Assembly: GCF_035084215.1 (NCBI RefSeq)
Contig: NC_090362.1
Coordinates: 5,828,001 to 5,892,000 of the forward strand
From: Heptranchias perlo
Taxonomy: Eukaryota
Reading direction: 5' to 3'
DNA length: 64,000 nt
Shown here piece by piece: positions 51,173 to 61,576 of the stretch; within the stretch, counting starts at the first letter, position 1, and each line of letters begins with the position of its first letter. The notes beneath the pieces were generated by a model that saw only the letters and a program-made list of their open reading frames with translations, searched no databases and was not told where the DNA came from. The translations under genes were made by a program, and so were the position numbers.

Positions 51173-54100
51173 TCACTCCCTGGATTTCAGTTTCGCCTCC
51201 ATCACTAGGAAAACAGAAAATTAAACATGTGAGGAATGAGAAACATAAGATTCAATCGATATTAAACAGCTGTAAATGGGGATTTGTTTTTTTTTACCCC
51301 AGGTCATGGATTTGAATCCATCTCTCTCTCTCCGCTCTTCACTCTCACTCTATCCCCCTCTCCCTCTCCCCTTCTCGCTCTCTCCGGGCTCAAGTGGGCT
51401 GAAATGCAAAGGGGTAGAATTTATGTTCCAGTTGTGTAAAGTTTTGGTCAGACCGCATCTCAAGTACTGCATCAGTTCTGGGCACCGCACCTCAGGAAGG
51501 AGATATTGGCCTTGGAGGGGGTGCAACGCAGATTCACCAGAATGATACAGGGACTAAAAGGGTTAATTTATGAGGACAGGTTGCATAGACTAGGTTTGAG
51601 TAAAGAAGATCTAATTGAGGTGTTTAAGATGATTAAAGGAATTGATAATGTAGATAGAGAGAAACTATTTCCTCTGTTGGGAGAGTCCAGAACAAGGGGG
51701 CATAATCTTGAAATTAGAGCTGGGCTGTTCAGGGGTGAGGTCAGGAGGCACTTCTTCACACAAAGGGTAGTGGAAATCTGGAACTCTCTTCCCCAAAAAG
51801 CTGTTGAGACTGGAGGTCAATTGAACATTTCAAAATTGAGATTGATTTTTGTTAGGTAAGTATACTAAGGGTTATGGAACCAAGAAGGATAGATGGAGTT
51901 AAGATACAGATCAGCCATGATCTAATTGAATGGCAGAACAGGCTCGAGGGGCTGAAAGGCCTCCTCCTGTTCCCATGTCTCTATGTTCACAATACATGTG
52001 ATAAAATTAGAACTATGAATTTAAAAATCATTGTAATGAGTCTGTACTTAAATACAATTTTGTAGATTTAGATCAAACATTCTTGTTTACCTTTAGCAGA
52101 TTGTCTTTTCCTTCTGATTATGCAAATTGATACCCCATCAATGCAAATTATCACAAACAGGTACAGAACCAAAACATACATGCGTCTATCAGTGCATCTG
52201 GTGTAAGGATCTGCAGAGGAGAAGCAACATTAAGTTCAGTCTGTGCAATCCCGTGTTATGTGGGACAGCTGATTACACTGGTTACCTGGGATGAGGAACA
52301 TACTTTTCCGGTTGGAATCTGGAATAGCACAATAACGAAGGAAGGAAATGGAACCGACTTATAATGGGTGCAAACTGGATTCTCTCAGCTTGAATTATTT
52401 ATATTAAATGATCACATTATATTTTAGATTGTATCACTTACTTTCAGTATTTGCAGGGGTTATGCTGCTGTTCACTGAGGATATTCCAGATGTTGAGGTG
52501 GAGGTGTCTGAAGATTCTGCACTCGGCCCTGTCACAGCAAGGGAGACGTTTGCTGCAATCTTCCAGACAGGTTTCCCTGAATCCTGAACATTTACAGCAC
52601 AGAGATACCTCCCTGTGTCTACCCTGTGAGCTGAGTGTATAGTAAGGTTGTGAGACTGGCTTCTATCAGTCGGATTGTGTGAGCTTTGGTTGGAAATTCG
52701 TTGTTCCGATTTTCTATCCACACAGCAGCGTGTGTTAGAATGTGAATTATAATCCTCAATGTGAACAGAATGCAGACACTTGCTGATGTTTCCAGATGTG
52801 ATCCAAAACAGAGTGAAGGGCAGGCTTTTTCTATTCTCAAACTGACAGGGTAAAGTCACACTCTCTCCTTCTGATACTGTCATCGACAAGGAGTTTTCTT
52901 CGGTGAGAAATATTTCATCTGAATCTATAAACAACATTGAAAAGAATATTTGTTATTAATTATTTAGATGGGCCGATCCCAAATGTTATCCAGCTGTTCG
53001 ATGTAAGTCTGATTCTGTCCGTAACCAGCTGCATTATCAGGAGTGTATAAAGCATGCGTGGCGGAAGGGCAGACCTGTTTTATTTTTAACCTTTGTTTGA
53101 TTTGCCCAGCGTTACATTATATTAGTTTCATTCCCCAGTTAGAGGCAAATAGTATAAGATTAGGAGACACTCGGAGACTGAGGCCAAGACAGCACGTATA
53201 ATGAAAGATCAAACCCACAAAGGGGCAGACACTGAAGGACAGAGACAAGGGGGAAAGACTTCGAACTCTTCTCTTTATCCGGATACGTAGTAATTTCATC
53301 CTTAATAAAGATTCTAAAGTTTTCCCAATGACAGCTATTTCCCCAAAACCTTCCCTATGATCTCCCATAATATCTCGCCTTACATCGTCTCCAATATCTC
53401 AGAAATATTTCCCCTAATATCTCCTCAATAACTCACCTGATAGTTCCCCCGATACCTGCTCCGATAATTCCCCCGATTCTTCCACCGATACCTCCCCCGA
53501 TACCTCCCTGATACCTCCCCCGATACCTCCCCGATAATTCCCTGATACCTCCCCCGATAATTCGCCCGATACTTCCCCTGATGCATCTCCTGATACCTCC
53601 CCTGATATCGCCCCGGGACACGTACCACTTTGGATTATCACAAAGAATAAGTTGTGGTTTTCACATCCATCTCCTGTCAGTGTGACCCAGGACAGACAAT
53701 CCGATGATCCATTTCCTGTGGAATCCTGAGCCGTGCAGGTAAATACCATAGAGTTTGATGTCTTCACATCGAATGTCAGTGACTGAGACTCCATTCGATC
53801 TTCATTTGTTTTATGTTTTTTACACTCTGGCTGATTTTGTTTTTTGCTCTTCTGAGGATTGTTGTTTCCACAAGATTCAATTTTCATCCCTTTTTTCTTA
53901 CATTTTGTTTTGCCCATTTCTGTTCCGAGATCACTGGTACTCCACCAGGTTACTTTATTCCCAGCACCAGTGGGTACGTTGCATTGCAGAGTGGTGAAAT
54001 CCCCTGGTCCTCGAGAGAAGAGATAAGTGGATCCTACAGGGAAAGGGCAGAATCAGATAGAGATAAATAACATTCCATACAGGAAAGGTCATTAAACACT

Positions 54101-60100: not shown

Positions 60101-61576
60101 CTGATAATGGGTGCAAGGACATCAGTTAGTCCTGTAAACGGAAATATCTTTGTAAATATTGTCTTTTTAATTGGGGTTTCTGTAGGAGGAGGAAATTAGC
60201 TGGTGCTGAATGGTACAGAACCAAAGACAGACTCAAAATTACAGGGTATCACTTGGTGGAATAGCAATTTTTTGTAAATTATTGCTAAGATAATGAAGTA
60301 AGAGAGTTATATCGAACTCGTTAGTTCAATGGAAAAAGATCTCATTAGTCAGGAAACCAGCTTATTACCTACAGTTATCAATAAGAGATAATTTAAATAG
60401 ATTCTCCTTATATGGAGTTGTATTTTAACTTTTGGTATCATATTGTAACCATCACTAGTGATTGGACTAGCTTTTAAGTGCTTGTTAAGCATTATTGCAT
60501 GTACTGCACGCTTAATAAATCTATGAACACTTGTGCTCAATATTTCAAGAATCTTGTTGAATTTGAGGATTAGATAGAACATCTAATCATAAATAAAAAC
60601 CATCCTCTAACAGAGGATGAGACCGGAATGCTACCAGGAATGAGGGAATTCAGTTATGTGGAAAGACTGGAGAAGCTGGGATTGTTTTCCTTAGAACAGA
60701 GAAGGTTATGAGACGATTTAATAGAAGTGTTCAAAATTATGAAAGGTATTGATAGCGTAAATAAAGAGAAACTGTTTCCATTGGCAGGAAGGTCGGTAAC
60801 CAGAGGACACGGATTGAAGATAATTGGCAAACGAACCGGGGGATATGAGGAAAATAAATGTTTACACAGCGAGTTATTACGATCTGGAATGCACTGCCCG
60901 AGAGGGTGGGGGAAGCAGATTCAATAGTAACTTTCAAAAGGGAACTGGATATATTTTGGAAAAGGATAAATTTGCAGGTCAATTTGAAAGAGCAGGGGAG
61001 TGGGACTAATTGGATAGCCCTTTCAAAGAGCCGGCACAGGCACGATGGGCTGAATGGCCTCCTACTGTGCTGCATTAATCTATGAGAAGAAGACTTTTCA
61101 GCCCATTGTATCAGTGCTGGCTCTTTACCAGAACAATCTCATTGCCCCGCTCTCCCCACAGTCCTGTATCTTTCTCTGCTTCAAATGTTTATCCCATTCT
61201 CATTTAAAAGATGCAATGATCTCGGCCTCAACCAGTCCCTGTGGAAAACATTCCAAACTCCAACAACCCTCTGTGTAAAGACATTTCTCCAAACCTCTCT
61301 CCTCACTCTCTTAGTGACAATTTAAACTGACGACTCACGATTAAACCTTTAAACGGCACAGCAAGAACTGTGATACGAGCACATTAAACACCCGCAGGAG
61401 AACAGCACCGATGGGAATCGATATCTTTCAATCTTTATATTTCTCCATTGAGATACAGATCGACACTGAAATTTCCAGACAAGAAATATGTTGAAGATTA
61501 ACTGAAAGTATTAATCCTTACCTGTAGCATGTTGGAACAGAAGGAACAGACCCACAAACAAAGCACTGAGCATCAT
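51173..61576 (-). CDS. Uncharacterised Ig-superfamily type I membrane receptor: complement(join(51173..51204,52091..52210,52442..52924,53626..54033,55355..55837,56382..56789,61522..61576)), ~662 aa
   Basis: Leader exon, four phase-1 V-type Ig exons, TM exon and short tail exon, all GT/AG and in frame. The last exon assignment is less certain. Confidence 0.75.
51390..51990 (+). mobile_element. CR1 LINE 3' fragment (intronic, antisense to the receptor gene)
   Basis: ALEGVQRRFTRMI...FFTQRVVEIWN. Confidence 0.9.
52091..52210 (-). CDS. Transmembrane exon (PYTRCTDRR-MYVLVLYLFVIICIDGVSICII-RRKRQSAK)
   Basis: ctgcAG acceptor, GTAAAC donor, hydrophobic run followed by basic stop-transfer residues. 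Confidence 0.8.
52442..52924 (-). CDS. Ig V-set exon V2' with Ser/Thr stalk
   Basis: GESVTLPC, FW, LTI...DTGRYLC; 483 bp, phase 1-1. Confidence 0.9.
53340..53615. repeat. Degenerate GATACCTCCCC minisatellite (also 56020-56370)
   Basis: 11-12 bp units directly after the V1 exon donor in both duplicated units. Confidence 0.9.
53626..54033 (-). CDS. Divergent Ig exon V1'
   Basis: GDFTTLQC, KVTWW, SLTF...VFTC; 408 bp, phase 1-1. Confidence 0.8.
55355..55837 (-). CDS. Ig V-set exon V2 with Ser/Thr stalk
   Basis: Duplicate of 52442..52924 with several substitutions. Confidence 0.9.
56382..56789 (-). CDS. Divergent Ig exon V1
   Basis: Duplicate of 53626..54033 (S/F and W/L differences). Confidence 0.8.
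57430..58260 (+). mobile_element. CR1 LINE 3' fragment
   Basis: TLVRPHLKYCEQFWSPY...LEKVQKRFTRMIP. Confidence 0.9.
58525..58880 (-). mobile_element. CR1 LINE 3' fragment
   Basis: Reverse-complement CR1 3' region. Confidence 0.75.
58898..59082. repeat. Minisatellite, 29-bp unit CCCCCATTACACAGAGTCTGGATAGAGAT, ~6 copies
   Basis: Direct tandem repeat with period 29. Confidence 0.95.
59095..60000 (+). mobile_element. Second CR1/L2-superfamily LINE family, RT C-terminus and 3' tail
   Basis: cagggcagcatcctaggccc (QGSILGP), QQDLDNIQAWA, LDTIQAKA; same family on the - strand at 62355-63390 and 63830-64000. Confidence 0.85.
60625..61085 (+). mobile_element. CR1 LINE 3' fragment
   Basis: [15 protein letters not shown]. 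Confidence 0.85.
61522..61576 (-). CDS. Signal-peptide exon MMLSALFVGLFLLFQHAT(G)
   Basis: 55-bp phase-1 leader with ACAG|GTAAGG donor. Confidence 0.8.

Follow-up and report, generated by a model that had tools for sequence, protein, structure and literature searches.

Paired immune receptors are encoded by adjoining genes whose ectodomains are near identical and whose transmembrane (TM) regions and tails are opposed. The CD300A/CD300C, pIgR-like and MDIR receptors occur as long and short forms with a Ser/Thr stalk and an acidic TM residue in the short form; in CD300A and CD300C the ectodomains undergo gene conversion, and the acidic residue through which CD300C couples is Glu (PMC12447643). 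The Siglec-11/16 pair consists of activating and inhibitory neighbours whose outer parts are homogenised by conversion, which keeps the pair matched (PMC5701461). Coupling to FcRgamma or CD3zeta relies either on an Arg close to the upper end of the TM helix (CD89, NKp30, NKp46) or on a lower-half FxxDT or FxxNT motif (CD16A, CD64, FcepsilonRI-alpha) (PMC13107469). Here we analyse a 64,000-nucleotide stretch of the genome of the shark Heptranchias perlo (RefSeq assembly GCF_035084215.1, contig NC_090362.1, positions 5,828,001 to 5,892,000 of the forward strand; hereafter the window, with position 1 as its first letter), which carries on its minus strand a gene for a multi-immunoglobulin (Ig) receptor, termed gene C. 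We propose that gene C is likely the activating member of a shark paired-receptor cluster, with predicted coupling of the FcRgamma/CD3zeta type, and that it belongs to an unnamed two-Ig family ranging from sharks to monotremes. The principle is a known one, that of paired receptors, and the family is apparently undescribed; a literature search that took in few subscription journals and no supplements found no published account of its genes.

Gene C and its transcripts

Gene C is a real, spliced gene. Seven coding exons, joined by six introns, encode a product of 662 residues that is identical in sequence to P0102, isoform X4 of the RefSeq model for this species, which is labelled 'serine-rich adhesin for platelets-like'. 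A preliminary description had proposed a leader, two successive pairs of V domains, each pair with a stalk, a TM region and a short tail, all in one frame. This order holds, and each of the six introns has GT-AG borders and keeps the phase. For reasons given below we call the two domains of each unit D1 and V, those of unit 2 being D1' and V' (exon coordinates, in window positions, are in Table 1). RefSeq isoforms X1 to X4 differ solely in their tails, four in number and none with a tyrosine. No second leader was found between units 1 and 2. A 33-nt candidate mini-exon (52285-52317, and with a stop at 55200-55232) was rejected because the RNA joints skip both copies.

Eight sequencing runs of one sample cover the region; four were guessed to be RNA, and three RNA-type runs were compared over 52050-57300. 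The joint between V' and the TM exon is present in two of the three (X5 and X8) and ambiguously placed in X6. In one X8 contig (one of three runs; 55 + 41 letters) the end of the unit-1 V exon is joined to the start of a D1 exon, at a depth of 13.9 compared with 16.6 for the V'-TM joint of the same run. This contig carries the base at 55383 that is unique to unit 1 and therefore supports a four-domain mRNA. Contigs spanning leader and D1, and the listed contigs spanning D1 and V', carry gene A alleles and were therefore not counted for gene C. Spliced transcripts, whose absence would have undone the preliminary description, thus exist for both the V'-TM and the unit-1 V-D1 joints. None of the DNA contigs among the matches listed bridges 54403-54406.

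A three-gene cluster and a recent fusion

When V' and D1' were each used as query in genome searches, four matches were obtained for either domain, all inside 43 kb of one contig. Besides gene C these searches lead to paralogs A and B, each laid out as leader, D1, V, stalk, neutral TM and long tail, the tails bearing the motifs VAYAV, VYCVI, TYSLI and NPIY. The earlier account had left out these two long-tailed paralogs, which lie beyond the window end, as well as the Asp/Arg TM helix of gene C.

In window numbering continued past its end, the block 54403-73263 is duplicated as 73264-92954, with 93-100% identity per kb. Unit 1 of gene C differs from gene B at two of 408 nt in D1 and one of 481 nt in V, and from unit 2 at 13 of 481 nt in V; it also has private bases. 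From the near-identity of unit 1 with gene B, the 4-bp microhomology at the junction and the lack of a leader between the units, it follows that in the four-domain gene C outer domains of B type have recently been fused onto an older short-form gene. Insertion, and duplication followed by deletion, are not distinguishable as routes. The 35-nt tail exon is a gene B exon used in another reading frame, with a truncated relic of the next gene B exon behind it; the short form therefore derives from a long form. Only the doubled, four-domain form looks species-specific.

Short and long forms in sharks

All 18 matches from a first homolog search, with 82 candidates, were shark proteins. Six short forms were compared: gene C and one each from Heterodontus, Mustelus, Scyliorhinus, Pristiophorus and Hemiscyllium. 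Every one has, in its TM region, Cys at -19, Arg at -15, Tyr at -8 and Asp, Asn or His at 0, none of which occurs in any of 12 long-type helices; these have Val or Leu at 0 and Cys at -8, and are without the Arg at -15. The RDD receptors CD89 and NKp46 are marked by an Arg close to the N-terminus of the TM helix that the inhibitory partner lacks, and the short forms resemble them in this when set against the long ones. The lower part of the short-form helix has no Phe at -3 and has Gly, not Thr, at +1 (6/6), and so departs from FxxDT/FxxNT. This short, polar TM type was seen only in sharks.

Trees of the two regions, both excluding gene A, group the same proteins differently. By ectodomain, long and short forms cluster by species in all five species having both (100/99-100); by TM region (36 columns) the six short forms are united (100/99). 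Outer domains that sort by species and TM regions that sort by type are characteristic of paired receptors that gene conversion has homogenised. The cluster also has the other marks of such pairs, namely adjoining genes, near-identical ectodomains and opposed TM regions and tails. The most variable part across sharks is the D1 loop, with 24-50% identity against 59-76% for V. Almost all long tails in the family carry YxxL/I/V (45/47), a strict immunoreceptor tyrosine-based inhibition motif (ITIM) being present in 14 of the 47, and NPxY occurs in 10 of 11 shark long tails.

Two proteins were seen alongside these forms. A frog protein, P0087, has an Arg near the start of its TM region and a short tail. 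The unnamed P0037, possibly from another cartilaginous fish, has a TM region and tail of the family type and a Cys-rich outer part without a V domain.

Range of the family

A profile search of 1.84 billion representatives returned 85 matches, 59 of them at E<=1e-10. Of the 30 looked up, one is the gene C protein, two are nameless and 27 bear uninformative names ('uncharacterized', 'hypothetical' or 'Ig-like'). The relatives looked up come from fish (sturgeon, gar, eel relatives, herrings, salmon, smelt, mudminnow, characiforms, catfish, lungfish) and from tetrapods (caecilian, newt, five frogs, turtle, alligator, two lizards, kiwi and echidna), and a platypus member was found in a separate search. 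No therian member is present among these named relatives (30 of 85 matches, plus platypus). When the echidna member served as sole query, only platypus was retrieved, which, the method being word-limited, is weak evidence of therian loss.

A hidden Markov model (HMM) of the V domain, from 65 members, gives family domains, untrained members included, 62-157 bits and generic Ig domains less than 29, with two short fragments at 46 and 35 bits. A tree of 71 domains roughly tracks species groups, and no unnamed sequence joins the two monotremes. The two-domain unit is found throughout the family. Its C' Cys, the first Cys of the CC pair and the G-strand Trp are conserved in 45-48 of 49 non-shark rows, and the core Cys of D1 are conserved as well. 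The proposal of a lineage-specific innate immune receptor is therefore kept in part: the family is not lineage-specific, extending as it does from sharks to monotremes, and an innate immune role is still the best inference. No clear ortholog of a known gene was found, in agreement with the earlier view that the gene could not be assigned to a named family.

Ectodomain and fold

V of gene C has five Cys, three of them extra (in KCL and CC), as the preliminary description had it. That description was also right that the first domain is divergent, with five extra Cys (seven in all) and a Lys/Asn-rich middle (12 Lys and 5 Asn within the 41 residues 60-100); its identification as a V domain was not borne out. 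For D1 and D1' Pfam gave nothing but sub-threshold Ig matches, and AlphaFold, given a 65-sequence alignment, predicts D1 of paralog B as a beta-sandwich of moderate confidence (predicted local distance difference test, pLDDT, about 60-90), V of this paralog reaching 85-98 per block. An initial model based on 17 shark sequences was of poor quality, its mean pLDDT being 37. In a fold search V matched the generic V-set fold (50 rows, Z 12.4-14.4) and D1 was barely covered; Foldseek returned generic V-V targets only, and PDB sequence searches gave generic Ig matches, with no CD200R among the matches listed. A Pfam hint of DUF4723 (E 0.03-0.05) was rejected, as this family is absent from the top 25 for 65 members.

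In D1 of the Heptranchias genes A, B and C, positions 48-49 are occupied by Trp and position 92 by His, where the majority of other sharks carry Cys. Non-shark sequences retain the C-strand Trp of D1 in 38 of 49 rows, sharks in one of 16.

Comparison with known receptor families

The defining features of known families were taken from PMC3031540, PMC7916673, PMC11599192, PMC8007030 and bioRxiv 10.1101/2021.06.11.448072. The hallmark of CD300, pIgR and MDIR is a WC motif in strand C with a second disulfide (PMC3031540). In the present family the residue after the C-strand Trp is I, F, V, L or M in 58/58 rows scored (65 aligned), and the J-like FGxG motif that marks NITRs is found in none of 65 V-domain G strands; the general likeness to these families suggested earlier is thus not upheld. 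Unlike in CD300, pIgR and MDIR, the extra disulfide is predicted to link the C' Cys to a Cys 16-22 residues later, there is an additional atypical D1, and the neighbours are different; skate MDIR is set apart by description only. NITRs resemble the family in being two-Ig, non-rearranging receptors with one Cys-rich domain, whereas here the J motif is lacking, the Cys-rich domain is N-terminal and members occur outside ray-finned fish.

The DICPs of ray-finned fish share the D1-D2 arrangement, extra Cys and clustered genes of doubled D1a-D2a-D1b-D2b structure (bioRxiv 10.1101/2021.06.11.448072), a precedent that lowers the novelty of the four-domain form. By description they differ in having four Cys per domain, against seven in D1 and five in V here, and in being embedded, in bowfin, in the major histocompatibility complex, whereas the present family is found in sharks and tetrapods and its nearest genes identified here are of aconitase and proteasome-alpha type; the comparison is one of Cys counts and published descriptions. 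The CD28 family has a single extracellular V domain (PMC11599192), in contrast to the two-domain unit here. Siglec-11/16 have unrelated domains, and in gene C a copy has also been added in front, not merely replaced.

Receptors coupled to FcRgamma or CD3zeta (CD89, NKp46 and NKp30; CD16A, CD64 and FcepsilonRI-alpha) are like the short form in their top Arg or lower-half Asp/Asn and in the lack of a tail motif (PMC13107469). The short form differs in that Arg and Asp share one helix, the lower motif is of the IxxDG/LxxDG type, not FxxDT, and the ectodomain is unrelated.

Proposed mechanism

We propose the following model. The long forms would bind a host ligand and dampen cells through their tyrosine motifs (YxxI/V, NPxY), probably by way of phosphatases or Dok-type adaptors. 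The tyrosine-free short form would bind the same ligand or a pathogen mimic of it, and may recruit an adaptor with an immunoreceptor tyrosine-based activation motif (ITAM) through its N-terminal Arg, as in CD89 and NKp46, and/or its lower Asp, as in CD16, FcepsilonRI-alpha and CD300c. Gene conversion would keep the binding surface of the short form matched to that of its inhibitory partner, and the fusion would place B-type domains at the distal tip of the gene C product. As the short form combines an Arg with a lower Asp, though outside an FxxDT motif, and has no central Lys, FcRgamma/zeta coupling is the best inference. A CD3zeta-like TM exon is present in the genome (L029:1477-1581, contig C11). 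Modelling a complex between the TM region and a dimer encoded by this exon (score 0.09, mark 0.34) is evidence for neither side.

Several observations weigh against the proposal that gene C is an activating, FcRgamma/CD3zeta-coupled partner. Its TM motif is IxxDG, not the FxxDT/FxxNT of Fc receptors, and the Arg sits at the extreme top of the helix. The genome search found no second strong locus of the zeta/FcRgamma family. The Heptranchias long tails have no strict ITIM (5/11 shark long tails have one), which makes their inhibitory role a putative one. In a dN/dS test among paralogs, the excess of replacement over silent changes between gene A and unit 1 in D1 is not significant (17 replacement, 1 silent, p=0.14). 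Finally, the joint between units 1 and 2 is one contig from one sample, and could be a back-splice because D1 and D1' start alike.

The lack of tyrosine in four tails and the departure from FxxDT would also suit a short form that works without an ITAM adaptor, either as a non-signalling decoy or modulator or as a dimer with the long form through stalk Cys and the TM Asp; the extra stalk Cys present in 6/6 short forms could serve such dimerisation. We regard this as unlikely, since four type-specific residues of the TM region are kept in six distantly related sharks, and an intramembrane partner fits this better than a passive anchor. Still less probable, in our view, is that the whole family acts outside immunity, as an epithelial, neural or reproductive adhesion or signalling receptor whose pairing is incidental. 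Nectins, CAR, P0 and sodium-channel beta subunits do feature among its closest folds no less than immune V domains, yet the opposed TM and tail types, the converted ectodomains and the fast divergence are typical of immune pairs, and we consider this reading highly improbable. An assembly error, or a recent rearrangement without function of a working two-domain gene, could also explain the four-domain form, given the near-identity of the adjacent 18.9-kb blocks and the single contig at the unit joint. However, there are bases private to unit 1, one of which appears in the RNA joint at a depth comparable to that of V'-TM in X8, and no second leader intervenes, so that we judge it very unlikely; in any case the family-level result is untouched by it.

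Kinship to CD200R deserves separate comment. CD200R1 and CD200R-like proteins are similar to the family in having two Ig domains, paired forms and acidic-x-x-PY plus NPxY in long tails, and the CD200R tail motif is EEDExxPYxxYxxKxNxxY (PMC8007030). A diverged CD200R sister, signalling alike through acidic-x-x-PY plus NxxY and Dok, with gene C as an activating CD200R-like counterpart, would account for the half-motifs (acidic-x-x-PY[AST] in 33/47 long tails, NxxY in 26/47), for NPxY in most shark tails and for a CD200R1-like cluster (0.92-0.93) in feature searches, which we take as leads only. The full motif, however, is found in 0/47 long tails. In the fold search, the V match to CD200R (4bfi, Z 13.3, root-mean-square deviation 2.2, 107 aligned) is tied with many among the 50 rows and points neither way. 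CD200R has the order V-C2, whereas in this family V is membrane-proximal, behind D1; CD200R-like proteins have a TM Lys, the short form Arg and Asp. The neighbours, of IREB2 and PSMA4 type, also differ from those of the CD200R block. A sister relationship with shared signalling is therefore quite doubtful, and the half-motifs leave a distant kinship open.

We thus return to a paired receptor with an activating gene C. More tentatively, the family may go back to the origin of jawed vertebrates as an immune receptor gene not described so far, present from sharks to platypus and lost in therians; its shark branch would have evolved an on/off pair of its own, with a hybrid Arg+Asp TM code for coupling to an ITAM adaptor, and would still be undergoing rebuilding by the grafting of inhibitory binding domains onto the activator. 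If so, an unnamed receptor family would be added to the ancestral immune toolkit of jawed vertebrates, one perhaps overlooked since no human or mouse protein is among the named matches. The shark cluster would be a compact three-gene record of the origin of an activating receptor, by loss of the tail (exon loss and frame change), gain of a polar TM region and matching to the partner. The short-form TM region would allow Arg-type and Asp-type adaptor coupling to be tested within one helix, and the Xenopus tropicalis copy LOC100492795 makes expression and knock-out tests possible.

Features of the locus and its surroundings

Table 1. Features of gene C and its cluster. Positions are those of the window except for paralogs A and B, which are given on the contig.
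Feature	Position	Strand	Remark
Leader exon (coding part), gene C	61522..61576	-	leaders of genes A and B are nearly identical to it
D1 of unit 1, an atypical Ig domain rich in Cys (7) and with a Lys/Asn-rich loop	56382..56789	-	99.5% nt identity to D1 of gene B
V domain of unit 1 with its Ser/Thr stalk, copied from long-tailed gene B	55355..55837	-	Pfam V-set E 1.4e-7
D1', unit 2	53626..54033	-	in-frame splice model; comparison with genes A and B
V' domain of unit 2 with its stalk, sites of A type and B type forming a mosaic	52442..52924	-	Pfam V-set E 5e-9
Short-form TM exon, Cys(-19), Arg(-15), Tyr(-8), Asp(0)	52091..52210	-	TM alignment and tree; RNA joint
35-nt tail exon, stop 51175-51173	51170..51204	-	similar short tails in P0008, P0009, P0012
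Alternative tail exon, RefSeq isoform X2, tyrosine-free	51307..51398	-	weak RNA hint (X6 record 10)
Relic of long-form tail exon and 3' region	50458..50986	-	up to 99% shared with genes A and B
Window part of 18.9-kb tandem duplication block	54403..64000	.	extends past window into paralogs B and A
4-bp microhomology junction: gene-B-type post-V intron to intron-1-type sequence	54403..54406	.	
Long-tailed paralog B	G000:C41:5895872-5908971	-	upstream of gene C, beyond window end
Long-tailed paralog A	G000:C41:5915251-5939966	-	upstream of gene C, beyond window end

Exons of aconitase type lie about 120 kb from the cluster and proteasome-alpha exons within the window, with a kinase-like exon between; we take these to be like IREB2, PSMA4 and HYKK, which in human lie at 15q25 in the order IREB2, HYKK, PSMA4. 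The proteasome alpha subunit exons lie at 31467-39826 (+), a gene that we assume to be PSMA4 from its motifs, and a GC-rich stretch near 24500-25500 may be its promoter. Genes of the nicotinic-receptor family are found at 14.84 Mb of the same contig (G000:C41), about 9 Mb from the PSMA4-like gene, unlike in human, where they adjoin PSMA4.

The HYKK-like kinase exon occurs twice, at 2544-3038 (+) and 10389-10883 (-), with both frames open, and an inverted duplication of 98% identity (965-5634 versus 8673-15704) holds both copies. At 17585-19448 (+) there are broken frames that give the impression of a retroviral envelope, without a family match; the first has a weak Ig-domain match. Minisatellites were seen at 7905-8563 (30 nt), 44615-44842 (38/19 nt) and 58865-59125 (29 nt), and within intron 1 of gene A the 29-nt unit of the last makes up an expanded array of about 3 kb.

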